A stretch of 61,900 nt of DNA, filler included, from Candidatus Zapsychrus exili (lineage in GTDB: Bacteria > Omnitrophota > Gorgyraeia > Zapsychrales > Zapsychraceae), in the NCBI GenBank assembly GCA_030765585.1. It is 7 parts of 7 records of this genome, joined end to end, with 100 filler letters (N's around TTAATTAATTAA, not from the genome) between each part and the next. Parts side by side here need not be neighbours in the genome. Positions count along the whole stretch, not along the records: positions 1 to 19,519 come from JAVCCJ010000074.1; 6 more parts are not named here. The stretch is one strand, 5' to 3'. Numbering within the stretch: position 1 is the first letter of the stretch; every line of letters begins with the position of its first letter. The translations under genes and the position numbers were made by a program. This document shows positions 1 to 15,804 of the stretch, piece by piece. Under the pieces are notes generated by a model. The model had not been told where the DNA came from, did no database searches, and worked only from the letters and a program-made list of their open reading frames with translations.

Positions 1-416
1 AGTATATTCAGGGTAAGCCGTCCCATAGAAGTATTAGTATTGAAATGCTGGGTTACCGAAACAAAAGTCACATTGTTTTGGTCAAAGAACTCTAATAATT
101 GGGAAAAGTCCAATAATGAACGAGACAACCTATCAACTTTATAGACAACAATGCAATCTATTTTCTTTTCCTTGATATTTGAGATTAAACTTTGCAAAGC
201 CGGTCTTTCCGTATTCGCGCCGGTATAGCCGGCATCGTCATAACGATCAGGTAGAACAGTCCAGCCTTCAGATTTCTGGCTGGCGATATAGCTTTCACCT
301 GATTCACGCTGGGAGTCTAAAGAGGTGAATTCTTTTTCTAAATTATCGCTTGTGGATACGCGCGTATAAATAGCGCAGCGAAGCAATTTTTTTTCTTGAG
401 CTGTATTATTTTCCAT
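1..416 (-). CDS. Serine recombinase, N-terminal catalytic domain (runs off window start; absent from ORF track)
   Basis: Manual translation from ATG at 416: MENNTAQEKKLLRCAIYTRVST...RPALQSL...VVYKVDRLSRS...MGRLTLNI. Contains the YxRVS catalytic Ser and DRLSR motifs. Confidence 0.93.
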   Translation of the reverse strand, partial: MENNTAQEKKLLRCAIYTRVSTSDNLEKEFTSLDSQRESGESYIASQKSEGWTVLPDRYDDAGYTGANTERPALQSLISNIKEKKIDCIVVYKVDRLSRSLLDFSQLLEFFDQNNVTFVSVTQHFNTNTSMGRLTLNI

Positions 417-424
417 TTTATCCA

Positions 425-898
425 CTATAGATTAAAAAAGTCATATCCGCTCCAATGAGAATCTGTTATCTCTTCAGAAATAGCTGTCAGGCTCTTATAG
501 TATTTGTTCTTGTACTCAAAACCTTTTTCCAGAACTCTTACCTGAATTTCCTGATCTTTGTACTTTTTATGCATTACAGTGCCTGGAATCGGCAGCCGCT
601 TATCTCTTAAGGAAGGTATGGAGGTAACAACTTTTCCCGCAGACGTTACTTCTGGGCGTAGCGCTTTATTATTAATCGGATCATATTCCTTCAAGAGCTC
701 TTTAATTCTGGTTTTAGCTTTCTCTGATATCCCGCCATATTCAAGTTTTTGTAGTTTATAAGCGATTCTTTTAAAGAGGTAAACTTTATTGTCGCAGGGC
801 GTTTCCCTGACCTTAAATAGCTCTTTGTATTTACTTTGCAGCTTCTCAACCGATGCAACCTTTAACTCCATAATTTGGGATTGTAGCGTTTCTTTCAT
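425..898 (-). CDS. DUF2924 family protein
   Basis: KRIAYKLQ..YGG, PGTV, GFEY..KYYKSLTAISEEIT..HWSGYDFF. Lies directly upstream of a serine recombinase, as is typical. ATG 898 preferred over 943. Confidence 0.85.
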   Translation of the reverse strand: MKETLQSQIMELKVASVEKLQSKYKELFKVRETPCDNKVYLFKRIAYKLQKLEYGGISEKAKTRIKELLKEYDPINNKALRPEVTSAGKVVTSIPSLRDKRLPIPGTVMHKKYKDQEIQVRVLEKGFEYKNKYYKSLTAISEEITDSHWSGYDFFNL

Positions 899-1112
899 AA
901 TTCTGACCTTTCTTTTACACCCACATAGGGCCATAAACGACAAGGTAAGTCAAGGGGAATAGAGAGGTATTTTTAGGTTGTAGGAGAACGAATCTAGCAG
1001 TAAAATAACTTGATTACAAACTGTTTATTCTGTAATAGCCAATAGGTTGATGGTAGAAAAGTTTAATTTTGAGAAGAATCGAAATAAACTTTAACAAAAG
1101 GATGAAACTAAA

Positions 1113-1640
1113 TTGAAAGCAATTGAAACAAAATATAAAGGGTATCGATTCAGGTCGCGCTTAGAAGCTCGTTGGGCTGTTTATTTTGATGCCATAAAAA
1201 TTAAGTGGGAATATGAAAAGGAAGGATATAAACTTGATAGCGGAGATCGGTATCTTCCTGATTTTTGGCTTTCACAAGTCAATATGTGGGGTGAAGTAAA
1301 GCCAGGGAGATTCTCAGAAGCAGAAATCAATAAAGTCAAAGAGCTGGTTAAGGGTGCAAGTTTTCCGTTTATCCTATTAGAAGGAACTCCCGACGAACGA
1401 AGTTATGCTGTTGTGTATTTAAATGATAAGAAAGAGGTTGTTGTCGGTGAACCTAACGGCAATGATTGTGTTATTTCGATGTACCACAATTACCCTATAA
1501 ATGAACAACGTTTTTATTCTTGTTCAGGAGGAGGATTATCGGAATATGACTTTGGTGAAGGAGGGAATTTTTCAGATGTTAGATTTGCTGTTAAGAAAGC
1601 ACGGTCTGCAAGATTTGAATTCGGCGAAAATGGCACTTAG
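1113..1640 (+). CDS. Phage-type PD-(D/E)XK nuclease-like protein
   Basis: YKGYRFRSRLEARWAVYFD...WEYE...YLPDFWL...EVK; TTG start preceded by AAGGA. Confidence 0.7.
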   Translation: MKAIETKYKGYRFRSRLEARWAVYFDAIKIKWEYEKEGYKLDSGDRYLPDFWLSQVNMWGEVKPGRFSEAEINKVKELVKGASFPFILLEGTPDERSYAVVYLNDKKEVVVGEPNGNDCVISMYHNYPINEQRFYSCSGGGLSEYDFGEGGNFSDVRFAVKKARSARFEFGENGT

Positions 1641-1840
1641 TTGTGAGGCGAATGGGGGAAAAATTAAAAGCAATCTTGAGCTTAAGCCTACTGAATACGC
1701 ATAAGAAAAGTTCTACGTACTTTTGAGTTTTTATTGCAGCAGACAAGCGTTAAGAAACGGTATATAAACATAGATGTATTATTAACGTATATCAGCATAT
1801 CGAAAGTAACTATATATACCTGACGTACAAGGGAAAAACT

Positions 1841-2032
1841 GAAGGCCACTGGCGCAAGCTTTCATATGATGAAATCAACGCCCAAGACAAAACAAGCCTT
1901 GATATCTTTTGGCTTAAAGACAAGAGCTTGACAGATCTTGATAATCTTTCCGATCCAGATGTATTGGCAATAGATATCATTGAGAATATAGAAGCTGGGT
2001 TAAAAAGTTTTAAGGAATTATTGAGATGTTAA
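1841..2032 (+). pseudogene. 3' remnant of type I RM methyltransferase subunit (HsdM C-terminus)
   Basis: Translates EGHWRKLSYDEINAQDKTSLDIFWLKDKSLTDLDNLSDPDVLAIDIIENIEAGLKSFKELLRC*, resembling the conserved HsdM tail; the rest of the gene is absent. Confidence 0.75.
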
Positions 2033-2054
2033 ATAACGAATAACGTAGAAGTAT

Positions 2055-3062
2055 ATGAACAGTAGCGGTACTGAAACTAGCGAGAATAAAATTAATGAGA
2101 TGGCTCTAGAGAGGCTTGTTGAGGCTATAAAGAAGAGAACTGTTTTTGCTTTTATAGGAGCAGGTTGTTCAGCAAAACTGCGTTATCCTGGATGGGATGA
2201 TCTATTGTGCAGGCTCGAGGAAGCCATATCAAATAAGAACGATTTGGATGTGTATAAAAACAGCGAAGAATGCATCAAAGACAAGTTGTGGTACGCCGAA
2301 AAATTGGTTACGATACTAGGTGAAGATAAATTTCGTGATGTAATAAAAGATATATTTAAACCCCAAAAAGAAATGGATAGCAAATTTCATAGAGACTTAA
2401 TCAGCATACGATTCAGACATTATATAACCACTAACTATGATAGCATTTTAGATCATGCCGCAGAGAAGGCAGGATTTCCACTATCCCATTTTTGCTGGAA
2501 TGATAAAGATGTGTTAAAGAAGTTTTTTCAAAATATTCATGATTTTGAGTCAACACCTGAAAGATATGTAATCCATATTCACGGAAGATATGATAAACCT
2601 GACTCGATAATTTTAACGGAAAAGGACTATATGAAAATATATTTTGAACAAGAAACAGCTTATAAGATTTTGTGGAGTATTATTTCTTCTTTTCGAATGT
2701 GTTTCATTGGTTTTAATTTATACGATTTAGATCTTCTATCTATATTCAGAAAATCGAGATGGGATTTTGAGAGAGGTGACCCTCGTCATTATGCAATTAT
2801 TGATGAAGAGAATATTGCTAAAGAAAGGCGGTCACGCAGATTATATCTGAGAGAAAAATATGGTATAGAGCCGATATTCTTTGCGAAACAGAGAAAGGGA
2901 AATACTAAATGGAAAGAACAAGAGACTATCGTAGAAAAAATAGCTTTTTTATTTAGTGTTGTAGAAAGAAAAAAGGAACCAAAAATCAAAAAAATAAAAA
3001 AACTTTCTTTGAAAAAAGATGCAAAGAAATTGAAGGAAATAACCGATTTGGCAAAACAATAG
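2055..3062 (+). CDS. SIR2-like (SIR2_2) domain protein, putative NADase effector
   Basis: FIGAGCS..YPGW, ITTNYD, IHIHG, IILTEKDY and FIGF motifs. Confidence 0.88.
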   Translation: MNSSGTETSENKINEMALERLVEAIKKRTVFAFIGAGCSAKLRYPGWDDLLCRLEEAISNKNDLDVYKNSEECIKDKLWYAEKLVTILGEDKFRDVIKDIFKPQKEMDSKFHRDLISIRFRHYITTNYDSILDHAAEKAGFPLSHFCWNDKDVLKKFFQNIHDFESTPERYVIHIHGRYDKPDSIILTEKDYMKIYFEQETAYKILWSIISSFRMCFIGFNLYDLDLLSIFRKSRWDFERGDPRHYAIIDEENIAKERRSRRLYLREKYGIEPIFFAKQRKGNTKWKEQETIVEKIAFLFSVVERKKEPKIKKIKKLSLKKDAKKLKEITDLAKQ

Positions 3063-6000
3063 ATGAAAACCATAGAGAGAAAGAAATTAGTTAGTGCTTT
3101 TATGGAATCAATAAGGAAGGGGTCGTTGCTTGTTATTGGCGATCCGGGGACTGGTAAAACGTGGTTACTTAAGCAAGCTATTCAGAAGGTTTCGGCTGAA
3201 GATATACCACACTTTTTTATCCAGGTAGATGCAATTGATGTGAGAAGCGTTACGGACTTTAAAAAAGTGCTCGGGTTAGATAATCCGATTCAAGATGTAC
3301 TTAATTATGTGAGCGGTGGTAAGCGGAGTATTCTTTTTATTGATGCCTTAGATACAGCTCGCGGGCCGGTAAAACAAAATATATATATACAGTTCATTGA
3401 GCTAATTCAAAGAAAATGCAAAAATTGGTCAATTATTGCAAGTATTCGTTCATATGATGCCAAGCATTCTTTAAAGCTTTTGAATTTATTTCCTATAAAA
3501 AGCCCTGAGTTATCTGAGGAGTTTCAACTTGAAAACGTGAAGTATAGACATTTTTTTGTTCCCCCGCTTTCAGGTACTGAGATCGCGGAATTCCTTGATA
3601 AAAACCAGTTGTTAAGTAACTTATATCAAAAGGCAAGCGATAAGTTAAAGAAATTATTCTATGTACCTTTTAATCTTTGGTTGCTGGATACCTTGATTAG
3701 CGGAGATATCGCTCTTAACAGAATTTCTGATGCTCAAACCGTTGTACAGCTTTTTGGTTTATATTGGGAATTTAGAATTATAAACAAACAGGATTCCGAA
3801 GATCGTGAAAACATCTTGAGAAGAGCGGCAAAAATCATGGTCGGCAACAATTCTTTGTCCTTATGGAAAAAAGATTTGTACATTGAGGGCACAAGTAACA
3901 CGCTTAAAGGGTTGCTTAGTGATCAGGCGTTAATAGCGCTATCAGGAACCGAACAGCGTTTGGCTTTTGAACATAATATGATATTTGATTATGTTGTTTC
4001 GAGACTATTAATTCAAGAGAATCCCAAGTATGCACTTAGTTTTCTTCAACAAGATCAAAGCAGGCCAATCTTTTTGAGGCCGAGTATAGAATATTATTTT
4101 TCCCGACTATGGTACAGCGATCGCGTTCTTTTTTGGAAGGTGTTTTGGCACTTCCAATCTGCTAGTAAAAATGAATACATTCATATTCTACCAATTGTTA
4201 CTTTTGTAAAAGAAATCAGCTGTCTCGAAGACTTTATACTGGTTAAAGACAAGCTTGAAAAGGCGAGTAGCTTATATCGTAAAGATTACTATAAAATTAT
4301 AAATAATATCTTCAGAGTTTTGAAAGTATTTAAACCTTCTATAGAATTCCCTCAAGATTGGGTATGGGTTGAAATGATGTATGTTGTAAAGGATACGTTA
4401 AGCGTCATTTTTATAGATGAGTTTATCCGCAGCCTAAAAACAGCTGTTGATAAATGGGATAAATGGACTGTATCGCAACAAGAAAAAATTGCTGTCATAG
4501 CAAGAGCAATATTAAATTGGGCATGGCAACCACCTAAGGGGCTTACTAATAATCAAATAAGTCTTTTACATAACATGATAGCAGTTTGGGGTGTTCCTTT
4601 AGTCTGCAAAACATTTGGATCTGGCACAAAGGAAGCAAAAAAAATCCTGAGCGGAATCTTAAAACGTGTCGGTTCCTCATCATTTATTATTCGCGAGATT
4701 TATAGCCTTTGTGGTGAAATAGATTCTATATGGCTCTATGATCCTGATTTTGTAATAGCTATTTATAAAACAGTTTTTGGGTATGAGGAAAAGTCACAAG
4801 GAATGACTGTGATGCGAGGTGGAATTTTGTCTTTAACTAGCACGAAAAGGCAGGATTACGAAGGTTGTTACTATATTCTTAACAAAAAATTTCCGAACTT
4901 TCTTGCACAATGTCCGATACAAGCTACCAAAGCAATGGTTGAGGCGGTTAATATAATTGTTAAACGAAAAGAGTTGTCTAAATGGAAGAAGAAAAGTTAT
5001 CCAATTCAATGGTTTCAATTTTTTGATATAAAGGCAAAGTATTTAGAAGACAGAAGTTCCGTTTGGGCCGACCGTGAATATAGAAGAGAACATTTCAAGA
5101 TGCTCGGTGATTTTACAAATTATTTAGATAAGTTAGGTCAAAAGAACGATGTCGTTAGCTTGAATTTAATAAAATCTTTGCTGGTTGAGATTGCGCGGAT
5201 AAATGAAGTTGCTTTTATATGGAAACGATTATTACGTCTTTGTTCAAAAAACCCATCAGTTTTTACTCAATTACTTCTGCCACTTTTTAAATCGACCTCA
5301 ATTTTAATTAATAGAGATACAACTTATGAAGCTGGTGAGGCATTAAGGATAGGGTTTGTTTATTTGGGCAAAAAAGACAGAGAAGAAATTGAAAACATAT
5401 TGCTAAAATTACCGGAACATATAAAAGGTAAAAACAATAAGGATCGGTTGACTGAACTCCGGAATACTTTGTTAAGTTGTATCCCTAAGGATATCTTATC
5501 TGAGGTTTCAAAGCAGACGTTGAATGAAGCAGAAAAATTTGCCAAAATTTTTCCGAATGAACCAGAAATGAAAAATATAGAATTTTCCAGCAAGCCATAC
5601 ACAAATATTGATTGGTTGAAAGAACAAAAGGCAAACTTAGAGGCAGATAGCAGCAAGAAAATATTAGATCTTGTAGCTCCAATTAAGTCATTTCAGGAAA
5701 AATTCCTTAACGGAATTCCGATAAAAGAAGAAATTAATGGAATATTGAGAAACGTACTAGAACTAAAGAAGGAACTTGAAAACAAGGATATTGCTTATGA
5801 TGAGCTAGTCAAACAGGATGTACTAACAGACCTTACTTCTGTATGTATACGCATTTCAAGGAACGATGAGTTATCTGGTGAGAGCAAAATCTTGAAACTT
5901 TGCGAGGAAGTATTTGTATTAGCTGCTAAGAACCAATTCCCAAAATACGATAAAAAATATCATGACAAATTCGATAGTCCACATTGGGGGCCTTCTCCAC

Positions 6001-7127
6001 GTATTGAAGCGGCAGAAGGAATAATGAATTTAACGAAAAGGAAAGAATTTGTTACAGAAAACAACTTGAAATTGATTAAAGATTTGTCTACTGATTTAGT
6101 ACCAGCTGTTAGATACAATATTATTAGGAGGCTACATTTTCTTTATAGAATAGCAGAGAAAGAGATGTGGAATGTCGCTGTTCATACAGCTAAACGCGAA
6201 AATACTAACGGGGTTCTGGTGGCTTTGGCAGTATCAATGGGTGTTTTTGCCCGATTGAAAACTAATTCCGTTTTGGATATTTTTGATATTATTTGTAAAA
6301 GAAAATCTATCAAAGAGCGAAAGGCATCAGGTGTTCATAATGATCCTTGCGTTTCCGCAGCAACTCAATTAGTGCTTTTAGATAGTAATAAAAGATCTAA
6401 TTTAAAAATTAAAGTTTATGAAAAGAGCCCGCTTAAATATTTTGATGAGTTACAACAAGTTGCTATTTCAGCAATAAATTATTTAACTATAGGATTCGAC
6501 GAAAAAGAACATAAAGAAATAAATACAGAGTTAGTTAGAAAAAGGACGAGACGGATTCTTTCGCGACTTTTAGTGAGCGCTAGCGATGGATTTCGTAAAC
6601 TATACAAAAGATACGGAAAGAATAAATGGCCTGAAGACAGAAAAACATTAGCGATTGGGCTTTACGATATAATAGATATCATTGCAAGATGGCTATATTT
6701 TAGCGCTACTAGCGAGAATAGAAAAACATGTCTTTATGATGAGCAAATTCAGCAATATTATTTTGAAATAAAATCTTTGATTAACCAAATAATATTAGTA
6801 GGTTCAACCAAAGAGGCCTTTTTGCATCCAGGTACGACTCATTATTTGATGCAGTTGTGCAATATAGTAATAAAATATGACCCCATAGGAGTGATTAGAA
6901 TTACTGAGGCATTATGTAAGGCTTCGGAAATGCATGGATATGCTTTGGACTCTATGGCAATTGGAGAAGTAGTAAAGCTAGTTGAGGTTTATATTGCTGA
7001 TTTTAAGGAGATTCTACAGGACAAAAGAAATATCTTATCTTTAATGAACATCTTAAATATATTTATTAAAGCTGGTTGGCCAGGAGCAATTAAATTAGCG
7101 ATTAGATTAGATGAGATTTGGCGATAG
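3063..7127 (+). CDS. Large STAND NTPase with helical-repeat C-terminus (Avs/AVAST-like, resembles Avs2), no N-terminal effector
   Basis: Walker A GDPGTGKT at aa 26-33, Walker B ILFIDALD, PFNLWLL, FEHNMIFDY, long helical region, C-terminus GWPGAIKLAIRLDEIWR. Subtype is from recall. Confidence 0.7.
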   Translation: MKTIERKKLVSAFMESIRKGSLLVIGDPGTGKTWLLKQAIQKVSAEDIPHFFIQVDAIDVRSVTDFKKVLGLDNPIQDVLNYVSGGKRSILFIDALDTARGPVKQNIYIQFIELIQRKCKNWSIIASIRSYDAKHSLKLLNLFPIKSPELSEEFQLENVKYRHFFVPPLSGTEIAEFLDKNQLLSNLYQKASDKLKKLFYVPFNLWLLDTLISGDIALNRISDAQTVVQLFGLYWEFRIINKQDSEDRENILRRAAKIMVGNNSLSLWKKDLYIEGTSNTLKGLLSDQALIALSGTEQRLAFEHNMIFDYVVSRLLIQENPKYALSFLQQDQSRPIFLRPSIEYYFSRLWYSDRVLFWKVFWHFQSASKNEYIHILPIVTFVKEISCLEDFILVKDKLEKASSLYRKDYYKIINNIFRVLKVFKPSIEFPQDWVWVEMMYVVKDTLSVIFIDEFIRSLKTAVDKWDKWTVSQQEKIAVIARAILNWAWQPPKGLTNNQISLLHNMIAVWGVPLVCKTFGSGTKEAKKILSGILKRVGSSSFIIREIYSLCGEIDSIWLYDPDFVIAIYKTVFGYEEKSQGMTVMRGGILSLTSTKRQDYEGCYYILNKKFPNFLAQCPIQATKAMVEAVNIIVKRKELSKWKKKSYPIQWFQFFDIKAKYLEDRSSVWADREYRREHFKMLGDFTNYLDKLGQKNDVVSLNLIKSLLVEIARINEVAFIWKRLLRLCSKNPSVFTQLLLPLFKSTSILINRDTTYEAGEALRIGFVYLGKKDREEIENILLKLPEHIKGKNNKDRLTELRNTLLSCIPKDILSEVSKQTLNEAEKFAKIFPNEPEMKNIEFSSKPYTNIDWLKEQKANLEADSSKKILDLVAPIKSFQEKFLNGIPIKEEINGILRNVLELKKELENKDIAYDELVKQDVLTDLTSVCIRISRNDELSGESKILKLCEEVFVLAAKNQFPKYDKKYHDKFDSPHWGPSPRIEAAEGIMNLTKRKEFVTENNLKLIKDLSTDLVPAVRYNIIRRLHFLYRIAEKEMWNVAVHTAKRENTNGVLVALAVSMGVFARLKTNSVLDIFDIICKRKSIKERKASGVHNDPCVSAATQLVLLDSNKRSNLKIKVYEKSPLKYFDELQQVAISAINYLTIGFDEKEHKEINTELVRKRTRRILSRLLVSASDGFRKLYKRYGKNKWPEDRKTLAIGLYDIIDIIARWLYFSATSENRKTCLYDEQIQQYYFEIKSLINQIILVGSTKEAFLHPGTTHYLMQLCNIVIKYDPIGVIRITEALCKASEMHGYALDSMAIGEVVKLVEVYIADFKEILQDKRNILSLMNILNIFIKAGWPGAIKLAIRLDEIWR

Positions 7128-7360
7128 AACATGTACGGATTAAGATTTATTAATGTGTAAAAACACAAGAACAAATCAAACAGTATCCGCGATTATATGG
7201 CCGTCAGATAACTGAAGAAGAATATCGCGAAATAGCTGTATAAAATCTTCTATGACCTTCCTTTAAGATCTTTAAGAGAGACTTGATTGTATCCTAATTC
7301 TATGGATATATATGACCTGACAGAAAATACTCTTTAAGCGAGAGAGGCTTTCGAGGGTTG

Positions 7361-7603
7361 TTATATATTATTTTCCGCTTCTTTGATCAGCTTACTCAAG
7401 GGTAAGTTTAGTGCCGCGGCAATCTTATAAGCCACACCAATCCCCACATCAACCTTCCCTAATTCAATAGAACTTACATAAGTACGGTGTATATTAGCCT
7501 TATCAGCAAAATCTTCTTGTGAAAGATTTAGCTTGTGGCGTCTTCTTCTTACCGTCATGCCGAATTCCTGCCCGATTTTTTTAATCTTGCTAGATTCTTT
7601 CAT
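7361..7603 (-). CDS. XRE-family HTH regulator (controller C-protein-like)
   Basis: LSQEDFADKANIHRTYVSSIELG; 80 aa. Confidence 0.88.
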   Translation of the reverse strand: MKESSKIKKIGQEFGMTVRRRRHKLNLSQEDFADKANIHRTYVSSIELGKVDVGIGVAYKIAAALNLPLSKLIKEAENNI

Positions 7604-7622
7604 CAGAGTTATAATCCCACAG

Positions 7623-7655
7623 TGTAGACTATTAATCTACAGATGATAGTCTACA
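7623..7655. promoter_or_regulatory. C-box-like operator upstream of XRE gene
   Basis: Perfect 10-bp inverted repeat TGTAGACTAT (7623-7632) / ATAGTCTACA (7646-7655) with GACT..AGTC core, 20 nt from the ATG. Confidence 0.6.
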
Positions 7656-7797
7656 AAATGAAAATCAAGCTTATTCTGGATATCTTGTGTTTGAGGAGGA
7701 AAGATAAGGTTTTGGCGAGGAAACAAAGTAAGAATAGCCTTGATTATATTTTAATTGTATGGCCCTATGTGGTCTGAAGAGTTTTTTCGAAGCGTCT

Positions 7798-8010
7798 TTA
7801 ATCTAACAGCTTTGAAGGTTTAACTTTGAGAGCTTTGGCGAGCCTTTCGATGGTTTCGACTTTAAGATTTGGCGGGTTTTTACCTTCAATTTTTTGGATG
7901 TATTTATAGTCGATGCCGGATAAACCTGAAAGTCTATCTTGTGTATAGTTTCGCTTTTTACGAAGTTCTTTTATCCTTTTGCTTAATTTGATGCGGATTG
8001 AAGCTTTCAT
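7798..8010 (-). CDS. XRE-family HTH regulator
   Basis: RIKELRKKRNYTQDRLS..SGIDYKYIQKIEG..PNLKVETIERLAKAL; ATG at 8010. Confidence 0.88.
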   Translation of the reverse strand: MKASIRIKLSKRIKELRKKRNYTQDRLSGLSGIDYKYIQKIEGKNPPNLKVETIERLAKALKVKPSKLLD

Positions 8011-8039
8011 ACACCAATTATCCCACGGTGTTATCATTA

Positions 8040-8069
8040 TTGACACCTAACGCTTGTAAGGTGTATAAT
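8040..8069 (+). promoter_or_regulatory. Consensus sigma-70 promoter overlapped by a palindromic operator
   Basis: TTGACA (8040-8045), 18 nt, TATAAT (8064-8069); ACACCT...AGGTGT palindrome at 8043-8064. Confidence 0.65.
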
Positions 8070-8289
8070 TTGTAAGGTTATAGAAAAAAGACGTTGCGTC
8101 AAGAGCAAAAGAAACGGTGATATCTCTGGAGTGAGATTAGCCAGATTCATGAAAGCGAAGAAATAGAAATCCGACTCCAAGTACGATAAGGGTGTATATG
8201 GAGGCGGTTGAGATATATAGATTTTAGAGGGTTATGTGTTAAATGGTGAAGCAAGTAGGTAGATGAGCTTAGACAAGGAGGGTGATAGT

Positions 8290-9267
8290 ATGAAGAGATT
8301 AGTTGTAGTATTGGTGTTTTCAGCATTGTTTTGCATGAGAATAGTTTCTGTTCAAGCCGGTAGCAAGGTTACTGTTGGTGTGGGGAAGATAGAATATAGA
8401 GCAACCTTGAGTGAGGCAGATAAAAATAGGCATGCTTATGGTAGAGGGAGTGTGGCAGCAGAGAACACAAAAGCATTTGTTGATATGCTAAGCACCGCAC
8501 TTATCAAGGCAAAGAAGTTTAGAGTTATCGAACGTGAACGCTTGGGCGACCTTATTCAGGAGCAAAGTTTAGGTGAAAGTGGTATGATTCTTGATGAAGA
8601 AACTGCTCATAAGTTGGGAACAGTACACGGTATAGATTACATGATATTAGGAGCTATTACCCAGTATGGCATCGATAAGACAGGGATAGGCACAGGAGGC
8701 AAATTAGGTTTCAACCTTGGTTTGGCCAGCGAGAAAGCAAGGATGTCTGTTGATATGCGGATAATTGAGGTAGAAACAGGAGCGGTGGTTATAGCGGAAA
8801 CAGTAGAGGAAATAGTAAGTGGGTCAAAAAGTTTAAGAAGTGAGTATGTGGCGTTAGATTCAGGGGGTGGCCAGCTACTTTCAGATGTGATGAGAAAGAC
8901 ATCTAACTCTGTAGCGAGATTAATAGTTTCCAAGCTTTTTCCAGTAAAAGTAGTAAATATCTCATCTAGCGGAGTAATAATGCTTAATTATGGTAGTGGA
9001 TTTTTGAATGAGAAAGGTGTATTTGATGTTTTCTCCCAGGGAGAGGAAATAGTAGACCCCGACACAGGGGAAGTGTTGGGTAGTGAAGAAGAAAAGGTAG
9101 GGCGTATTGAGATAACCAGTGTCCATGAGAAATTCTCAAAAGCAAAAGCATTGGAAGGAACAGATAAGATAGGGAAAGGCATGATTTGTAGATCTGTCAG
9201 TAAGAAAACATTAGCAAAAGAGCAAAAGACAAGAAAGAAAACAAAAAGAAAGAAATTGAAGTTTTAA
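8290..9267 (+). CDS. CsgG/HfaB family exported protein with FlgT-like C-terminal domain
   Basis: Signal peptide; FRVIERERL..LIQEQ, DYMILGAIT, VDMRIIEVETG, DPDTGEVLG; RBS AAGGAGG before ATG 8290. Confidence 0.8.
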   Translation: MKRLVVVLVFSALFCMRIVSVQAGSKVTVGVGKIEYRATLSEADKNRHAYGRGSVAAENTKAFVDMLSTALIKAKKFRVIERERLGDLIQEQSLGESGMILDEETAHKLGTVHGIDYMILGAITQYGIDKTGIGTGGKLGFNLGLASEKARMSVDMRIIEVETGAVVIAETVEEIVSGSKSLRSEYVALDSGGGQLLSDVMRKTSNSVARLIVSKLFPVKVVNISSSGVIMLNYGSGFLNEKGVFDVFSQGEEIVDPDTGEVLGSEEEKVGRIEITSVHEKFSKAKALEGTDKIGKGMICRSVSKKTLAKEQKTRKKTKRKKLKF

Positions 9268-9346
9268 AGGGGATAATCTTAATGAAGACGGAAATCTGAT
9301 AGGCACTTTTCTATTAAGCAGGAATCAGTAAAAGAAGAAGTTAGTC

Positions 9347-9955
9347 ATGGGATACGATAAAGAACTGTTAAAAAGTTGGTGTGATGACGAAAGTTGGGGA
9401 GATTACCTAAGTCGAAAAGGTGCATTGGTTGATAACGTCTCGACCGAACAATTCAAAGCCATTGAGAAAGAATACTTTGATGCGCTCAAAGAGAGAATCG
9501 ATATTTGCGAGGACATACTTAGAAGACACAAAGACGGATTTGTCAATTATGTGCTTGCTCAGCTTTATGATAAAGATGATGTTGATCGATCGCCGGAAAC
9601 CTTATGCAAGCGAAAAGTTATCTATCACTGCCTCCAAGCAATTAAGGAAAATTCTAATTTTGCACCAACTTGGGTATTACTTGCTGAAACCTATGAATGG
9701 ATAGCAACATTGGGCGATGAAAGCGATACCATGCCAAAGATGGAGGTCTCGGTTCGTGATAAACATATTACTGCCAACATAAGACAAAAAGATCAATTAG
9801 GTATTGCAAGTAATTCTCAAGACGTCACAATCCAATATATTGAAAAAGCTATTTCTTGTATTAAAAGGGCGATTGCCATAGATCCATCAAATAAAGAATA
9901 TCAGGGGATACTCAGAAGCTATTATCGTCAAAGAAATGAGGACTATCGGCGATAA
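9347..9955 (+). CDS. Hypothetical protein with TPR-like helices
   Basis: 202-aa ORF; AISCIKRAIAIDPSN is TPR-like. Confidence 0.55.
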   Translation: MGYDKELLKSWCDDESWGDYLSRKGALVDNVSTEQFKAIEKEYFDALKERIDICEDILRRHKDGFVNYVLAQLYDKDDVDRSPETLCKRKVIYHCLQAIKENSNFAPTWVLLAETYEWIATLGDESDTMPKMEVSVRDKHITANIRQKDQLGIASNSQDVTIQYIEKAISCIKRAIAIDPSNKEYQGILRSYYRQRNEDYRR

Positions 9956-9957
9956 TT

Positions 9958-10296
9958 ATGTATAAAAAAACTTTAGAATTAGATTACATTTCCCTTGACA
10001 AATGTAATTTTTCGTGTATTCTTTTGAGTGATATGAGTGATCAATTTTGGAAGATATATAAGGAGTGCAAGGCGCATACGGATGAACTGCTGGAAGTAGC
10101 TGGCAAGGATAAGGAAAAACAGAGGAAGACCTACGCACGGAAAATATATGATTATAGGAAAGCGCATGATTTAACCCGGGATGAACTGGCAAAAAAACTA
10201 AAGGTTTCTAAAATGGAGATTTTGCGCTGGGAAAACGCAAAGCATATGCCAAGTGAACTAGCTATTGATAAGATGAAGCAAGTAGGTATTTTGTAG
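9958..10296 (+). CDS. XRE-family HTH protein
   Basis: LTRDELAKKLKVSKMEILRWEN..HMP. Confidence 0.75.
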   Translation: MYKKTLELDYISLDKCNFSCILLSDMSDQFWKIYKECKAHTDELLEVAGKDKEKQRKTYARKIYDYRKAHDLTRDELAKKLKVSKMEILRWENAKHMPSELAIDKMKQVGIL

Positions 10297-10367
10297 AAGA
10301 GGAATTTTTTTGTTTAGAAAATCACACGCAAGATAACAATTGTAGTCAAATATGTAAGGAGGTTAGC

Positions 10368-11642
10368 ATGGATGCAATCATGGAAATAAAAAAGATACCG
10401 ATTACCGAAATAAACCCTGCATCATATAATCCGCGTAAGGATTTGCAGCCAGGAAACAAAGAGTATGAAAAATTGCAAAAAAGTATAGAAGAGTTTGGTT
10501 ATGTTGAACCATTGGTTTGGAATAAAAGCACAGGGACACTTATCTCAGGGCATCAGCGTTTAAAAATTCTTAAAGCCCAAGGCGTAAAAGAAGTCGAAGT
10601 TAGTGTAGTCGATCTTTCGGCTGAGAAAGAAAAAGTTTTAAATATCGCGCTTAACAAGATCGAAGGCCGTTGGGACGAGAAAAAGCTATCCGGCATTTTA
10701 TTTGAATTAACCAAAATGCCCGATTTTGAATTTGAATTAACTGGCTTTGAGCTACCGGAGCTTTCGCAACTATTGGATCGCTACCAAGAAATTAAAGATG
10801 GCGATGATTATGATTTCGATGCGGCAATTAATGCCTTGGGAGAAATTATTACAAAGCGAGGGGATATCATTGAGTTGGGGTGGCATAGGATCCTTTGTGG
10901 AGATAGTAGCAATAAAGACGATATAAAACGTCTTATGGCAAATGAAGCAGCTGATCTTCTCTACACCGATCCGCCATACAATGTTAACTATTATGGTGGT
11001 CATCGACCACACACGAAAGCTCGTCCCAAGAAGTGCAAACACTGGGTAAAGGTCTACCAAGATAATCTTTCTGACCAAGAATATAGGGATAAGCTTAAGA
11101 GTGTCCTTGTAAATATTTGTGAGTTCTTAAGTCCAAATGCTGTTTCCTATATTTGGAATGCCCATAAAAATTTTGGTCTGATGCATGATATTTTAATAGA
11201 CCTTAATTTTCATGTGGCTTCAGTCATCGTATGGGCAAAGCCGAATTTCTCGATATCGTTTGCTGACTACAGCGAACAAGTGGAGTTTTGTTTATACTCA
11301 TGGCGTTGTGGTAATGGTGCACATCCTTGGTACGGAAAAAATGAGACGACGCTATGGCAGATTAAACGTGACCCACCTACCAGCCTTATTCACCCTACTC
11401 AAAAGCCTGTAGCGCTTGCTTCGCGTGCTCTCGCAAATAGTTCAAAGCGTGGCGATTTCGTTGCGGATTTATATCTTGGTAGTGGCAGCACACTTATCTC
11501 GGCCGAAAGTTTAGGTAGGCGGTGTTTCGGCATGGAGATTGATCCAAAATTCTGCGACGCCATTGTGCGTCGTTATATTGCTTACGTTGGTAAGAATAAA
11601 GTTTCAAGAGATATCGTTAAACGTTATCTGAAGGAGGATTAA
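10368..11642 (+). CDS. ParB-like domain fused to N4/N6 DNA methyltransferase (phage type)
   Basis: YNPRK..SIEEFGYVEP..ISGHQR; HRILCGDS, TDPPYN, HPTQKPV, DLYLGSGSTL; RBS AAGGAGG. Confidence 0.92.
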   Translation: MDAIMEIKKIPITEINPASYNPRKDLQPGNKEYEKLQKSIEEFGYVEPLVWNKSTGTLISGHQRLKILKAQGVKEVEVSVVDLSAEKEKVLNIALNKIEGRWDEKKLSGILFELTKMPDFEFELTGFELPELSQLLDRYQEIKDGDDYDFDAAINALGEIITKRGDIIELGWHRILCGDSSNKDDIKRLMANEAADLLYTDPPYNVNYYGGHRPHTKARPKKCKHWVKVYQDNLSDQEYRDKLKSVLVNICEFLSPNAVSYIWNAHKNFGLMHDILIDLNFHVASVIVWAKPNFSISFADYSEQVEFCLYSWRCGNGAHPWYGKNETTLWQIKRDPPTSLIHPTQKPVALASRALANSSKRGDFVADLYLGSGSTLISAESLGRRCFGMEIDPKFCDAIVRRYIAYVGKNKVSRDIVKRYLKED

Positions 11643-11643
11643 T

Positions 11644-12324
11644 ATGTGTGCAGAAAAAATTAATAGTACCGAGATATCTGCATTGCAATTACTTCAGGAT
11701 ATTAATTCTGGATTGATCAACCCGAAAACGATCGATAAGCAGAGTCGTCAACAATGTATCGAGTCATTAGTGGCAGAAGGTTACACCTACCAACAAATTT
11801 CGCAGATTCTTAAGTGTTCCGAAAAGACCGTTTCTCGAGACATAAAGGAGATACGTACACGTAATGAGCTTATACCGAGTGTTGAATTTGCCAAGCAGTT
11901 TATTGGTGAGGTATTTCATAAGGCGATGAGCCACCATGGTTTCTTGGTGCGCACGGCACGCGCCAAAGATGCATCTTCTGCGGAGAAAATTCAAGCTGAA
12001 TACGCAGCATGGAAGGTTCTAAAAGAGCTTATGGAGAAATTTCAGTCTTTAGGATATTTGCCATCAAAGCCCACCGAGGTTATCGGTAACTTTTATCACC
12101 ACACCGATAATGATGAAAATAATTCTCCGGAAGCAATGCGTAAGATGCTTCTTAGTATTGAAGAGGCAGCAAAAGATGCCGGTGTCCTAGATAAGGAGGT
12201 GATTGCAAAAATAGAACTATTAAAGGCACGCATTGCCCAGTCGGAGATTGTAGTAGATATAAAACAGTTAGAAGGTAAAACCTTAAAAGAAAATGAGAAA
12301 AACCATGAAGAAGGACATAAGTAG
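11644..12324 (+). CDS. HTH protein in terminase small-subunit position
   Basis: GYTYQQISQILKCSEKTVSRDI HTH; sits between the MTase and TerL. TerS role is inference. Confidence 0.6.
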   Translation: MCAEKINSTEISALQLLQDINSGLINPKTIDKQSRQQCIESLVAEGYTYQQISQILKCSEKTVSRDIKEIRTRNELIPSVEFAKQFIGEVFHKAMSHHGFLVRTARAKDASSAEKIQAEYAAWKVLKELMEKFQSLGYLPSKPTEVIGNFYHHTDNDENNSPEAMRKMLLSIEEAAKDAGVLDKEVIAKIELLKARIAQSEIVVDIKQLEGKTLKENEKNHEEGHK

Positions 12325-13951
12325 TAGTATCAGAGAATTACAAAAGGAAGTAGCGCGCAAGAGCCTTAAGGTTTTTGCAACTACCTATTTCAAGCACTAC
12401 ATTAAGTGCAGCTTTGCAGATTTTCACCTTGAGTTATTTGATTATCTGACCGAAATTACCTTAAAACGAGGTAGGCAGCTTGCAATTGCCGCACCCAGAG
12501 GAAACGCTAAAAGTAGTATAGTAAGCCTCATGTATGCGCTCTGGTGTATCTGTTATGGGTATGAGAAGTGTGTTGTGCTTTTTTCAAGCACCCGGAAGCA
12601 ATCAGGAAAGTTGCTCGGTCATATTAAGGATGAATTGAGCTCTAACATGGAACTTAAAAGAGACTTTCCCGAAGTTTGCGAGCCACCGAATCCGCGTTGG
12701 AGAGATGATGAGATTACTACCAAAAGTGGAGTTAATGTTATGTCATCAAGTGTAGAGCACGGGATAAGGGGTATCCGGCATAAGGATAGCCGTCCAGGTC
12801 TCACTATTCTTGATGACGTTGAGTCTGTTGAAAGTATCCGCAGCCAGGAGCAAAGAGAAAAGATTTACGACTGGTTTACAAAAATGGTGTTGAACCTCGG
12901 CTCGAAGAAGAGCAATTACATTATTGTGGGGACAATTCTTCATTTTGATTCTTTGCTTGCAAAGATTATCTTAGGTGAGGAGTTTCCGGGATGGGAGAAA
13001 AGGATTTATAAATCGGTTAAAAGTTTTTCGGCCAGCCCACTCCTCTGGGATAAGTGGGAACAGATTTACCGGGGCAAGGATCTCTATAATGAAGATTCAG
13101 GACCCGAGGTTGCGAAGAAGTTCTTTGAGGATAATAAGGATAAGATGCTTGAAGGCACCGAGGTCTTATGGCCTGAAAAAGAATCCTATTATGAGCTCAT
13201 GCTGATGAAGACCCAAAAGGGCAACCTTAGTTTTGATTCTGAGAAACAGAATGAGCCTAAGGATATAAGCGGCCAGTCAATCGATATGAAAAAGGTCATA
13301 TTTTGGGAAGATAAGCATCAAGCGTTGGAAGAACTTCAAGCGTTCTTAGGGACTCGTAAAGTGGTGCTTGGCGCCTGCGATCCCAGTATCGGTAAAGGCA
13401 AAAAGAGCGACTATTCCGCTATTGTTAACGTGTTTATGGATTACACCAACAAAGATATCTACGTTGTCGATGCTGACATGGGACGGTGGGATGTGCATAC
13501 GTTGGTTGAGCGAATCTGTATACACCATAAGACGCGCAATTTCGCTACCTTTCTCTATGAGGCAAATGCAGCGCAAGCATGGTTAGGGGATATAATTAAG
13601 AAAGCGCCAACAACTATACCTCTAAAACCGGTTACTAACAATACACCAAAGAACTCGCGGATTATGAAGCTCATAGTGTTGATAGAACAAGGCAAGGTGA
13701 AGCTTTCACGAAGACTTAGCGAATTAATCCGGCAGCTGGAACAGTATCCGAACGGTGCACATGATGACGCCATTGATGCTTTGTCCATGTTAATTGATGT
13801 TGCAGAGAATTTCTCGAGGCTCGATGTTGAAAAGATAAAGAAGATTATGGAGCTGGTTAATGGACTAAGTCCCGAAAAAGACCCTAATGCTTTCTTTGTC
13901 CAGGGTGGTAAATATATTTCTAATCCATTTCGTCTCCTTAAGGCAAAATAG
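12293..13951 (+). CDS. Phage terminase large subunit
   Basis: Walker A APRGNAKS, Walker B ILDDVE, IVGTILH, nuclease motifs ACDPS..SDYSAIV and HDDAIDA. Confidence 0.9.
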   Translation: MRKTMKKDISSSIRELQKEVARKSLKVFATTYFKHYIKCSFADFHLELFDYLTEITLKRGRQLAIAAPRGNAKSSIVSLMYALWCICYGYEKCVVLFSSTRKQSGKLLGHIKDELSSNMELKRDFPEVCEPPNPRWRDDEITTKSGVNVMSSSVEHGIRGIRHKDSRPGLTILDDVESVESIRSQEQREKIYDWFTKMVLNLGSKKSNYIIVGTILHFDSLLAKIILGEEFPGWEKRIYKSVKSFSASPLLWDKWEQIYRGKDLYNEDSGPEVAKKFFEDNKDKMLEGTEVLWPEKESYYELMLMKTQKGNLSFDSEKQNEPKDISGQSIDMKKVIFWEDKHQALEELQAFLGTRKVVLGACDPSIGKGKKSDYSAIVNVFMDYTNKDIYVVDADMGRWDVHTLVERICIHHKTRNFATFLYEANAAQAWLGDIIKKAPTTIPLKPVTNNTPKNSRIMKLIVLIEQGKVKLSRRLSELIRQLEQYPNGAHDDAIDALSMLIDVAENFSRLDVEKIKKIMELVNGLSPEKDPNAFFVQGGKYISNPFRLLKAK

Positions 13952-14040
13952 TCAAAGATACCCCTTGATATTCTGGCGCTTCCGAGCCATATATGTACTG
14001 CTTGGAAGCGCCACTTATTTTTAAAGAAAGGAGGTTGTAT

Positions 14041-14328
14041 ATGTGGAAACAAGGAGATTTGCTTGTAATGCGAATTGGGACGATTCCAAATAGCGCGGTA
14101 CGCTATAATAATCGCGTCTTAGCTGAAGGCGAAGCAACAGAGCATCTGCATGAGCTTGACAGCGGTGAAGTTTATATAGAAAAAGACATGCTGTATTTTA
14201 GAATAAATGCAGAAACATCAACGCTTACTCATCCGGAGCATAAATCGCTTATATTTGAACTCGGCTCTTATAAAGTTGTCAGGCAGCGTGAATACGAGCC
14301 AAAAGGATGGTGGTATGTACGCGACTGA
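14041..14328 (+). CDS. Small conserved phage-associated His-motif protein
   Basis: KQGD..LAEGEATEHLH..LTHPEH..GSYKVVRQREY; RBS AGGAGG before ATG 14041. Confidence 0.7.
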   Translation: MWKQGDLLVMRIGTIPNSAVRYNNRVLAEGEATEHLHELDSGEVYIEKDMLYFRINAETSTLTHPEHKSLIFELGSYKVVRQREYEPKGWWYVRD

Positions 14329-14483
14329 TTACGCGAAGATAGGTCATATATGGCTTCAAGGTAGGCTAAAATATGTATACACAAACCCTAATAAATCAAC
14401 CGCGGACTGTCTCGGGATCAAGAAACTTAAGGTTTGTCTAGATTTTTGTATTTTACAGACCCATTAACAGAAGGAGGAATAAA

Positions 14484-15233: not shown

Positions 15234-15344
15234 TAGTAATAAAATTAAATCTGGAAGCGAATTTAATAAATAGTGAATATGGGCTAGCCAACAGGCTGAC
15301 CGCTTAGATTCCCTAGTGGAAATTTACATGCAAGGAGGCAAGCT

Positions 15345-15692
15345 ATGTCAAAATGGAACCCAAATGAAATAAGTAAACAGTTTAAATTTATCGCAGATAA
15401 GGCAGAGAGGTATTTATTGGAAGTAAAAGAAAAAATGAAAGATAGGAAAACTTATGAAGCGATTCACGATGAGTATCTGGCGAAAATCTCTGTGTATTGC
15501 TATCTTTATGGTAGGACATTTCTAAAAACCAGAGAAAGTTTTGTTTCTGAGCTAAAAAGAATGTTAAATAATTCAAGAGAACCGCTTTCGGAAGCCTTGA
15601 ATTCTGAGCGCTTTATTATGTATTGGAAATCATATGTTAAGCAGTTACTTTCACAATATGAAGTTAATACCGAAAAACAACATAATAAATAA
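15345..15692 (+). CDS. Hypothetical protein
   Basis: 115-aa ORF with RBS AAGGAGG. Confidence 0.6.
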   Translation: MSKWNPNEISKQFKFIADKAERYLLEVKEKMKDRKTYEAIHDEYLAKISVYCYLYGRTFLKTRESFVSELKRMLNNSREPLSEALNSERFIMYWKSYVKQLLSQYEVNTEKQHNK

Positions 15693-15804
15693 AGCAATTC
15701 AACACCGACGTCCGGACAAAGAGAGGTGGACAAATCTATCTCATAGTCTTTCAAAGAGTTACGGAATTTGCAGCATCCATACTTTTTCAAAATAAAGGAG
15801 CAAT

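Follow-up and report, generated by a model that had tools for sequence, protein, structure and literature searches.

The locus described here lies in a window of 61,900 nucleotides from Candidatus Zapsychrus exili, by which we mean the whole stretch of DNA analysed, filler included. Two genes follow one another on its plus strand, one encoding a SIR2-family protein and the other a large STAND (NLR-like) ATPase-sensor that lacks an effector domain (Table 1). At their junction the window reads gca aaa caa TAG ATG aaa, with the SIR2 stop codon (3060-3062) and the sensor start codon (3063-3065) in one frame. This arrangement had been described in a first-pass annotation, and the open reading frames of 335 and 1354 residues that it implied were recovered, as was a Walker A motif beginning at residue 26 (G26-T33 in the sensor sequence). 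The annotation had also remarked that no clear ribosome-binding site lies at normal spacing before the sensor gene. None is present, but this is not special: of the window's 37 long ORFs only 15 have a loose SD-like motif 5' of them, and the SIR2 gene, like the sensor gene, has none upstream. A scan for promoters and terminators gave no more than chance would (25 promoter-like sites where 24.9 were expected, and 2 terminator-like sites where 3.0 were).

Table 1. Features of the SIR2/sensor locus, numbered along the whole window
Feature	Position	Strand	Basis or remark
DNA methyltransferase gene, 3' remnant without start codon	1754..2032	+	stop-to-stop frame; tblastn
SIR2-family gene, 335 aa	2055..3062	+	predicted NADase effector subunit; Pfam SIR2_2
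Junction CAA TAG ATG	3057..3065	+	SIR2 stop, then sensor start in frame; gap 0
Gene for a STAND (NLR-like) ATPase-sensor without effector, 1354 aa	3063..7127	+	PDC-M54A model match, homologues, SeAvs7 profile match
NOD module, residues ~1-330	3063..4052	+	predicted structure, Foldseek, invariant motifs
Putative nucleotide-binding domain ~1-168; helical domain ~169-262; winged-helix domain ~263-330	within NOD
Walker A G26-D-P-G-T-G-K32-T33	3138-3161	+
Walker B ILFIDALD, residues 90-97	3330-3353	+
FxHNxxFD motif, H304	3972-3974	+	read as a putative NLR 'MHD-like' histidine
Alpha-solenoid (HEAT/ARM-like), residues ~331-1354	4053..7124	+	model, Foldseek, VIA-align; presumed ligand sensor

The methyltransferase remnant stops 22 bases before the SIR2 start, and its last 68 residues share 63-69% identity with plasmid genes annotated 'class I SAM-dependent DNA methyltransferase' (tblastn, E 2e-22); its frame gave no NCBIfam match. 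The pair is carried on a prophage-like element, close to its integrase, and would there shield the lysogen from other phages. No third conserved gene accompanies the pair in related loci, the commonest neighbour cluster being found in just 19 of 103.

The SIR2 protein matches Pfam SIR2_2 above the cut-off (E 2.3e-24), and PADLOC SIR2 models of the LmuA, ThsA and Dsr1 types with E values of 1e-23 to 4e-16. Judged by its motifs, the NAD-cleaving active site appears to be complete, with a Gly-rich NAD loop (G35-A-G37-C-S39) and with the catalytic Asn and His carried by a TTNYD motif (N127) and an HIHG motif (H176). Residues G35, G37, T125, N127, H176, Y192 and G219 are invariant in all 106 operon partners. 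The nearest solved relatives are DSR2 (8wkt, E 3.9e-14), ThsA (6lhx, E 2.8e-12) and KomC, with 'DSR2 H171A' among the names of the structure entries, and we take N127 and H176 to be equivalent to DSR2 H171 and ThsA N112/H152. By analogy with ThsA, DSR2 and Avs5, the protein would be an NADase whose activity depletes NAD+. For Avs5, NAD+ hydrolysis is demonstrated as the output in the accessible text of the published work (PMC12931631; Avs5 also PMC11897194). The lysine-rich tail noted at first pass is present in the window's protein, where K+R make up 34% of the last 59 residues, but it is not a linker-like feature of the family, the median tail of the 106 partners having 11% K+R and 20% D+E.

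The sensor protein has the predicted features of an NLR-like STAND NTPase, namely a P-loop with Walker A and B motifs, a NOD fold and a C-terminal solenoid of about 1000 residues. Pfam gives only sub-threshold P-loop/STAND matches, to AAA, nSTAND3 and NACHT over residues 8-135, nSTAND3 scoring 20.2 bits against a cut-off of 27.2. Thirty-seven homologues were found, 28 of them 1330-1365 residues long, and in an alignment of 104 homologues G26, P28, G29, G31, K32, D94, D97, R129, H304 and N305 never vary. When the model of the NOD (m29d545becf8c; pLDDT 90.2, pTM 0.86) was searched with Foldseek, it matched Avs4 (8dgf_B, E 2.5e-10) and, at E 1e-9 to 1e-8, NLRP3, NLRP9, NLRC4 and NOD2, all with probability 1.00, and also EfAvs5 (9jap_A, E 1.5e-7). 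The domain limits in Table 1, and the reading of H304 as an 'MHD-like' histidine, are those that this model suggests.

The solenoid, modelled over residues 400-1354 (m0e60f6049f3b; pLDDT 91.0), is punctuated by two β-hairpin inserts at ~581-594 and ~648-661, and probably serves as the ligand sensor. Its top Foldseek match is again Avs4 (8dgf_A, E 5.1e-8, TMq 0.42), followed by importins, SF3B1 and mTOR. In VIA-align the same chain gives the longest alignment among the 50 matches listed, with 790 residues spanning residues 2-951 of the solenoid model (rmsd 9.1) and a Z score of 13.8, values of about 13 being such that for helical repeats they may reflect only a common arrangement. Neither Foldseek nor VIA-align listed SeAvs7 (9n00), a structure that their libraries may not contain. 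A profile of the sensor part had no significant match among PDB sequences; against 9n00_A it reached E 0.01 over one repeat of ~40 residues, much as it did against PP2A HEAT repeats.

How are these two genes arranged elsewhere? Related loci were found by an alignment-based search of genome contigs, a single-protein search of the same contigs having returned nothing. A SIR2 homologue lies directly upstream of the sensor gene, on the same strand, in 136 of 159 loci. The other 23 comprise 15 in which the sensor has an in-frame N-terminal extension of ~200 residues and 8 with fewer than 550 bases upstream; the pair is thus present in every one of the 136 loci where the upstream sequence is long enough and the alternative extension is absent. 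These loci are spread over many bacterial phyla and three archaeal lineages, methanogenic archaea among them. A stop codon separates the two genes in every one of 118 non-redundant pairs. They overlap by 1-32 bases in 82 of these and are 0-6 bases apart in 25, so that the spacing lies between -32 and +6 bases in 107 of 118, with the qualification that sensor starts in the relatives were chosen for their closeness to the aligned N-terminus and that overlap lengths such as -11 and -17 may be off. Junction types switch often on the sensor tree (53 state changes), and the split persists throughout. The identities of the partners to the window's SIR2 and sensor co-vary (n=105), with a high Pearson coefficient (0.91) that rests on a dozen or so close relatives and a low Spearman coefficient (0.32). 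Four loci (L052, L061, L068 and L078) have only short SIR2 fragments upstream, implying that the pair can decay.

The sensor family is large, comprising 2615 representative clusters at E <= 0.001. Among the best 150 of these, 32 are fragments, 111 begin directly at the ATPase and 7 carry a different domain at the N-terminus. The first-pass annotation took an N-terminally fused effector to be the norm; this is so for the Avs proteins characterised to date, whereas in this family the ATPase comes first in 111 of the 118 representatives whose N-terminus is intact. The dominant conserved form has SIR2, the predicted NADase, on a separate gene that appears to be translationally coupled to that of the sensor.

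Where the sensor does carry a fused domain, this varies. SMEK_N was found in five of six N-terminal extensions tested and PNP_UDP_1 in P0171, and forms that match PDC-M54A in full carry an uncharacterised domain of ~300 residues. In four loci (L008, L034, L043 and L075) a SIR2 gene accompanies a sensor to which SMEK_N is fused. Four of the long proteins (P0032, P0035, P0036 and P0038) were considered as fused SIR2 forms and rejected: BLASTP with the SIR2 sequence showed no similarity, hhalign gave their N-termini a probability of 1% against the SIR2 alignment, and P0032 had no phmmer match among PDB sequences. Among closely related sensors, effectors are swapped frequently. A bolder proposal, speculative and on balance unlikely, is that the pair is a natural 'split NLR' in which a detachable SIR2 subunit docks without an adaptor and is assembled or released on activation, the trans-acting SIR2 having been repeatedly exchanged with cis-acting effectors (SMEK_N, a PNP-type phosphorylase and others), with some lineages keeping two at once. 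If true, it would offer a simple system for the control of a non-covalently bound enzyme by a NOD oligomer, and a model for effector exchange in immune receptors.

Co-folding of the two chains, one of the checks proposed at first pass, gave an ipSAE of 0.57 for SIR2 with sensor residues 1-660 (0.57, 0.58 and 0.57 in three runs), against 0.00 for the best of three controls. When the method was calibrated, 116 of the 157 solved complexes passed, as did 2 of the 215 mismatched pairs, scores of 0.60 or below including only 18 of the 157 solved complexes together with both passing mismatches. At least 55% of contacts are common to the runs, with a partner pLDDT of at least 76, and no interface was returned; the solved fused SIR2-STAND protein EfAvs5 (9jap) could bias the prediction by likeness. 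These models weakly suggest that SIR2 may bind the N-terminal part of the sensor.

The in-frame stop invites two readings in which the genes are properly one. If some ribosomes read the TAG at 3060 as sense, the active species could be a continuous SIR2-STAND fusion of ~1690 residues, resembling Avs5, in whose published descriptions, so far as accessible, such a fusion is known for another family; the zero gap in the window's clade is compatible with this. Yet in 105 of the 118 related pairs the genes are in different frames, a relation that is independent of how sensor start codons were assigned, and most of them overlap, which makes read-through to a fusion impossible for those pairs. Even among the seven members of the window's own clade, gaps of 0, +1, +5 and +23 occur. 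TAG is an ordinary stop here, terminating 12 of the 37 long ORFs in the window, the sensor gene included, and for this reason reassignment of TAG was likewise rejected. Comparison of fused and split homologues, as the first-pass annotation had advised, yielded no fused SIR2-sensor form among the 37 sensor homologues, no match of the SIR2 profile to any of the best 150 of 2615 representatives, and none fused to this sensor among three longer SIR2 relatives, the last being weak evidence. Control by read-through is accordingly very improbable. The annotation's other suggestion, that a recent nonsense mutation or an assembly or sequencing error has interrupted a normally fused gene, draws on the single stop between domains that are fused in families such as Avs5, and we give it almost no credence. 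The junction AAACAATAGATG is common to the window and five independent relatives with 65-83% sensor identity, these being its closest (L002, L080, L081, L082 and L083, in which AAACAATAGATGAAr is identical). Positions 3060-3062 are bridged without a difference by contigs from four of four sequencing runs (X1-X4), which as assembled contigs of depth 3-7 cannot show minority variants and which all come from salt-lake metagenomes of one period, one of them possibly the source sample. The ATG stands exactly at the conserved N-terminus of the family's sensors, and the split itself is universal in the family. The stop is therefore real and normal for the family, and neither an error nor a read-through signal. 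The exact ATG after the stop had been held to favour a genuine split, and the split is genuine; the in-frame arrangement as such carries no special meaning, because gap 0 occurs in only 6 of 118 non-redundant loci and is one of many junction types.

Two further readings accept two genes and differ on what they do. Since SIR2 proteins and STAND proteins are each found on their own in other systems, a stand-alone SIR2 defence gene might simply lie beside an unrelated STAND regulator. Such independence is hard to credit for genes that stay together on one strand, mostly overlapping, in all 136 eligible loci across so many lineages, with no other neighbour conserved. More room, though still not much, must be left for a pair that cooperates otherwise than by proximity-activated NAD+ depletion, through triggered release of SIR2 to form its own oligomer or filament, through ADP-ribosylation of a target or through a signal molecule. 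All family members examined have SIR2 as a polypeptide of its own, which would permit release; its co-occurrence with a fused SMEK_N in some loci indicates that it need not occupy the N-terminal effector position; and filament-forming defence sirtuins (EfAvs5, FAM118B) are described in the accessible literature. On the other side stand the docking on sensor residues 1-660 that co-folding tentatively favours, and catalytic residues that are those of NAD-hydrolysing defence sirtuins.

We conclude, with a probability of roughly 0.75, that the locus is an intact, translationally coupled two-gene operon encoding a two-subunit, NLR-like candidate anti-phage system, and that separate genes are the ancestral as well as the usual condition in its family. 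Of the possibilities raised at first pass, the paired and stop-separated loci bear out the one favoured there, an Avs-like system of two components whose NADase acts in trans. Defence activity, NADase activity and binding are what we infer for this candidate family. The TAG-ATG may be read as a termination-reinitiation junction, coupling being suggested by the spacing seen across the family; it would then be the local form of a family-wide tight coupling that keeps the two subunits made together. In the resting state the sensor would be ADP-bound and closed, with SIR2 docked on its N-terminal half. Binding of a phage protein by the solenoid would lead to nucleotide exchange and oligomerisation of the NOD, bringing the docked SIR2 subunits together as active NADases, and the resulting NAD+ depletion would stop both the infected cell and the phage. 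Ligand-induced oligomerisation is proposed by analogy with Avs3, Avs4 and Avs7, as set out in the accessible part of one report (10.64898/2026.01.04.697583).

The SIR2/sensor pair would thus be a widespread two-gene candidate anti-phage module. In the characterised bacterial NLR-like sensors (Avs3, Avs4, Avs5 and Avs7) the killing domain is on the same polypeptide, whereas this large family differs, which raises the question of how a NOD controls an enzyme that is not fused to it. For annotation, such pairs should be neither 'repaired' into fusions nor flagged as pseudogenes; current PADLOC models would recognise the sensor only.

How does the pair relate to known systems? Neither protein matches an Avs-named PADLOC model at E <= 0.1 (models for Avs2 and Avs4 are present, and that for Avs5 is assumed to be), so that the profile check proposed at first pass gave it no Avs name, and the tests applied here place the sensor in none of the named Avs types. 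Avs5 (EfAvs5, 9jap; PaAvs5) likewise combines a SIR2 effector, a STAND NOD and a C-terminal repeat sensor, but as a single fused Sir2-nSTAND3 polypeptide, whereas here SIR2 is a separate coupled gene throughout the family. The accessible text of a modularity-network preprint and of Rousset 2022 mentions fused SIR2-STAND forms only. DSR2, DSR1 and ThsA have the same catalytic Asn and His as the window's SIR2, but in DSR1 and DSR2 the SIR2 domain is fused to its own sensor and in ThsA to SLOG, neither with a STAND ATPase. The stand-alone 335-residue SIR2 scores 15.5 and 19.3 bits with the NCBIfam DSR1 and DSR2 models, against a cut-off of 1400, and its match to Thoeris ThsA covers model positions 7-234 of 478, the protein ending at residue 335 without the SLOG/STALD fusion.

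A precedent for an effector in a separate gene neighbouring an NTPase sensor is provided by the EAD-linked NTPase conflict systems, as described in the accessible text of Kaur, Burroughs, Iyer and Aravind (eLife 2020, PMC7159879). Those systems have an effector-associated domain on both proteins, whereas the window's sensor has just ~18 residues before the P-loop strand and therefore no EAD-like adaptor; recruitment by an adaptor of this type was rejected, the sensor having no N-terminal domain.

Literature searches turned up no phage-protection experiment on this family, and one for 'PDC-M54' found no paper. No PDC-M54 model, PDC-M54B included, was matched by any of the 106 SIR2 partners at E <= 1e-5, nor was a PDC-M54B-named model among the matches of the window's own SIR2. 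The sensor, in contrast, matches PDLC04700 of the PADLOC-DB v2.0.0 candidate PDC-M54A (PDLC04700/04702) with E 9.7e-211 over positions 306-1657 of 1657. It lacks the first ~305 positions of the model, a domain that is not SIR2, and so falls short of a full-length match; full-length members (P0032, P0035, P0036 and P0038) are homologues of the sensor at 21-29% identity. By sequence the closest solved ATPase, and the sole solved STAND match of the ATPase profile, is SeAvs7 (9n00/9n01/9yix; E 8.5e-15, query 16-393 against 9n00_A 276-629). The sensor of SeAvs7 is likewise long, helical and of comparable size, and the Avs7 family has many exchangeable effectors according to the accessible part of the report cited above, but SeAvs7 carries its own fused N-terminal Cap4 nuclease and the likeness of its sensor to that of the window's protein is not significant. 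The Avs7 sensor is reportedly common to Dsr1, and both window proteins fall far below the NCBIfam Dsr1 cut-off. By fold, the NOD and the solenoid of the sensor protein both find their best structural match in Avs4 (8dgf), at 10-12% sequence identity, and it too differs in having its own fused N-terminal nuclease. The pair is thus closest to the candidate PDC-M54A, to SeAvs7 in the sequence of its ATPase, and to Avs4 and Avs5 in fold.

The SIR2 gene and the downstream STAND sensor gene adjoin directly, the TAG stop at 3060-3062 being followed by an in-frame ATG at 3063-3065 (GCA AAA CAA TAG ATG AAA), as the first-pass annotation had noted. It had offered three readings of this junction: a real split with SIR2 acting in trans, a fusion controlled by read-through, and a nonsense mutation or sequencing error. 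We reject the last of these. Logan contigs from four sequencing runs (X1-X4, salt-lake metagenomes) bridge 3060-3062, all with TAG and with zero differing letters; because they are contigs, not reads, of depth 3-7, which may stem from a single campaign and may include the source sample, they exclude an assembly slip and are compatible with a minority variant. The junction AAACAATAGATGAAr is identical in loci L002, L080, L081, L082 and L083, the closest relatives among the matches listed, whose sensors are 65-83% identical to that of the window. TAG is an ordinary stop here, ending 12 of the 37 long window ORFs (TAA 22, TGA 3), and it is also the sensor gene's own stop. Two of the annotation's supporting arguments fail. 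The lack of a ribosome-binding site is unremarkable, since just 15 of those 37 ORFs have even a loose SD-like motif ahead of them, and the Lys-rich SIR2 tail is a peculiarity of this AT-rich copy (K+R 34%; the median of 106 partners is 11%). Elsewhere in the window a run of N's, a scaffold gap at ~57917-57940, lies directly upstream of a minus-strand ORF (56552-57916).

Homologues bear on the remaining readings. Searching with the sensor gave 37 further proteins, 28 of 1330-1365 aa (27-76% identity), four shorter (884-1207 aa) and five longer (1535-1674 aa). Alignment-based scans covered 79 genome loci (best 80 of 218 confirmed relatives) and 80 metagenome loci (best 80 of 191), and in 136 of these 159 the gene immediately upstream, on the same strand, encodes a homologue of the window's SIR2. 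Among the other 23, the sensor ORF extends ~600 bases further upstream, in frame, in 15, and the upstream sequence is shorter than 550 bases in eight. In the proposed comparison of fused with split homologues, a stop codon separates the genes in all 118 non-redundant pairs from these best-80 scans. With the sensor start taken as the codon nearest the aligned N-terminus, a choice on which the exact overlap lengths hinge, 82 pairs overlap by 1-32 bases (commonest classes -11, -17 and -4), 25 have gaps of 0-6 bases (0 in six), two are separated by 23 and 35 bases, and eight lie at least 92 bases apart; one computed spacing, -226, is nonsensical. Frame relations are independent of this choice, and the two genes differ in frame in 105 of the 118. 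Read-through, for which the in-frame ATG of the window leaves room, is therefore unable to join the two proteins in these pairs, and we reject it.

A FastTree tree built on the first 700 residues of the sensors pairs the window with L002 (support 100), within a seven-row clade (support 99) with gaps of 0, +1, +5 and +23. Over the tree as a whole, at least 53 changes of junction state are needed, with the split kept throughout. An exhaustive search using a profile of the sensor part gave 2615 representative clusters at E <= 0.001 (1368 at E <= 1e-30); among the best 150 of the 2615, 111 begin at the ATPase, seven have another N-terminal extension, 32 are fragments, and none is matched by the SIR2 profile. 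Three longer SIR2-containing proteins were found, none fused to the sensor family, which the tool's own note calls weak evidence. The stop in every related pair, the agreement of the contigs and the 150 SIR2-free representatives support a real split. No third gene is conserved, the commonest neighbour cluster occurring in 19 of 103 loci. The pair also occurs in archaea (L005, L014, L045 and L052; Methanosarcina, Methanomicrobiales and a Methanobacteriota MAG), with sensor identities of 30-32% and, in the first three of these loci, a 2-base gap (TAAAAATG). At L052, L061, L068 and L078 the upstream SIR2-like ORFs are short (101-261 aa) and lie 188-1453 bases from an intact sensor gene; they may be decaying SIR2 partners.

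The SIR2 ORF matches Pfam SIR2_2 (E 2.3e-24); among solved structures it is closest to DSR2 (E 3.9e-14), ThsA and KomC, and in PADLOC it scores best against the LmuA-, ThsA- and Dsr1-type SIR2 models. Seven residues (G35, G37, T125, N127, H176, Y192 and G219) do not vary among the 106 operon partners, implying selection on the NAD-processing site, and the subunit is catalytically complete. For the sensor, Pfam gives only sub-threshold P-loop/STAND matches, within the first 135 residues. The Walker A motif (G26-D-P-G-T-G-K-T33) leaves no space for an N-terminal effector, as had been argued. The model of residues 1-700 (pLDDT 90.2) matches Avs4 (8dgf_B, E 2.5e-10), NLRP3, NLRP9, NLRC4, NOD2 and EfAvs5, and this part is an NLR-type NOD, the nucleotide-binding, helical and winged-helix module. 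Walker A, D94/D97, R129 and FxH304NxxFD are invariant in 104 of 104 sensors, the last being probably the winged-helix 'MHD-like' histidine motif. Residues 400-1354 are modelled as an alpha-solenoid (pLDDT 91.0), for which Foldseek places Avs4 first (E 5.1e-8), then importins, SF3B1 and mTOR. In VIA-align the Avs4 alignment, spanning model residues 2-951, is the longest of 50 rows (790 residues, rmsd 9.1), with a Z of 13.8 that falls in the range called common for helical repeats. The only solved STAND relative of the family profile is SeAvs7 (9n00_A, E 8.5e-15, ATPase region only); with the sensor-part profile that match is not significant (E 0.01).

How might the two subunits act together? 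Both genes are intact, co-inherited and tightly coupled, and the NOD is complete, with a large solenoid. On the model of Avs3/4/7 (10.64898/2026.01.04.697583), the solenoid would bind a phage protein, and nucleotide exchange and oligomerisation would follow. SIR2 subunits would then be activated and NAD+ depleted, as modelled by Avs5, DSR2 and ThsA (PMC12931631; PMC11897194). The sensor may either recruit SIR2 or release it. The homotypic EAD mode of other NTPase conflict systems (PMC7159879) is inapplicable, since the sensor has no N-terminal adaptor. Co-folding, as the annotation proposed, gave a score of 0.57 for SIR2 with sensor residues 1-660 (runs 0.57, 0.58 and 0.57; best of three controls 0.00), which could partly reflect resemblance to the fused EfAvs5 structure. 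In the tool's calibration 116 of 157 solved complexes reach the pass mark, as do two of 215 mismatches, and only 18 of those 157, plus both passing mismatches, score <=0.60. At least 55% of contacts agreed between runs and partner pLDDT was 76 or higher, with no interface returned; the result lends weak support to direct binding.

SIR2 in trans is the dominant of four forms in which this scaffold is found; the others have fused SMEK_N, fused PNP_UDP_1 or unknown domains. Immune sensors typically change their output domain in this way while the sensor stays constant. SMEK_N (PF21941) was found in five of six extensions tested (E 1e-42 to 1e-45), and the domain also matches a PADLOC Argonaute-associated REase model. 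SMEK_N-fused loci, mainly in Poribacteria and Latescibacterota, are interspersed among SIR2-type loci on the tree, where the 12 rows without a SIR2 match need at least nine changes. Some SMEK_N-fused loci (L008, L034, L043 and L075) have a SIR2 gene as well and would thus place two effectors on one sensor. Further SMEK_N fusions occur at L011, L013, L023, L046 and others, and at some SMEK_N-fused loci a type ISP/IIG restriction enzyme gene lies upstream in place of SIR2. Protein P0171 (1599 aa) carries a fused N-terminal PNP_UDP_1 phosphorylase domain (E 2.2e-21); P0066, P0091 and P0110 (~1510 aa) have an N-terminal domain of ~165 aa without a Pfam match.

The pair lies on a prophage-like or satellite-like mobile element (window 3-19000) without recognised capsid or tail genes; host-like genes, a sigma factor and kinases, appear from about 20 kb onwards. 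The remnant of a methyltransferase gene stops 22 bases short of the SIR2 gene. Over its final 68 aa it matches the 3' end of plasmid genes labelled 'class I SAM-dependent DNA methyltransferase' (63-69% identity, E 2e-22). It appears to be a restriction-modification gene that was truncated, and its position directly upstream of SIR2 suggests cassette replacement at a defence hotspot.

Features of the SIR2-sensor pair and the prophage-like or satellite-like mobile element, in window coordinates
Feature	Position	Strand	Remarks
Serine integrase	window edge		phrog_95; cut by edge
DUF2924 gene	after integrase		
Nuclease-like gene	1113-1640		
DNA methyltransferase 3' remnant	1754-2032	+	stop-to-stop frame without start codon
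SIR2 ORF	2055..3062	+	335 aa
Sensor ORF	3063..7127	+	1354 aa
Cro/cI-type HTH repressor	7361-7603	minus	
Cro/cI-type HTH repressor	7798-8046	minus	
ParB-methyltransferase gene	10368-11642		
Large terminase	12293-13951		phrog_38, E 6e-95
phrog_11745 protein	17542-18981		

Literature searches on PDC-M54, on SIR2/STAND/Avs5 and on separate-gene SIR2/STAND systems found no paper on this system. The main text of the 2026 STAND survey (10.64898/2026.01.04.697583), in the part available, says nothing of sensors that lack an effector and have one in trans; its supplementary tables may already list the clade. The strongest family match of the sensor is the PADLOC candidate defence model PDC-M54A (E 9.7e-211, model positions 306-1657 only). 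Full-length PDC-M54A-type homologues have an N-terminal domain of ~300 aa, which sequence and profile comparison rejected as a SIR2, and no SIR2 partner matches the PDC-M54 models; the overlap is confined to the sensor. The fold of the sensor matches Avs4 and EfAvs5. No Avs-named PADLOC model is matched, and the effector is unfused. We conclude that the pair is a widespread candidate two-subunit SIR2 plus NLR-like module, which by analogy would work like an Avs5-type SIR2-NLR; whereas the effector is fused in Avs5, here SIR2 is separate, and the system lies outside that family.
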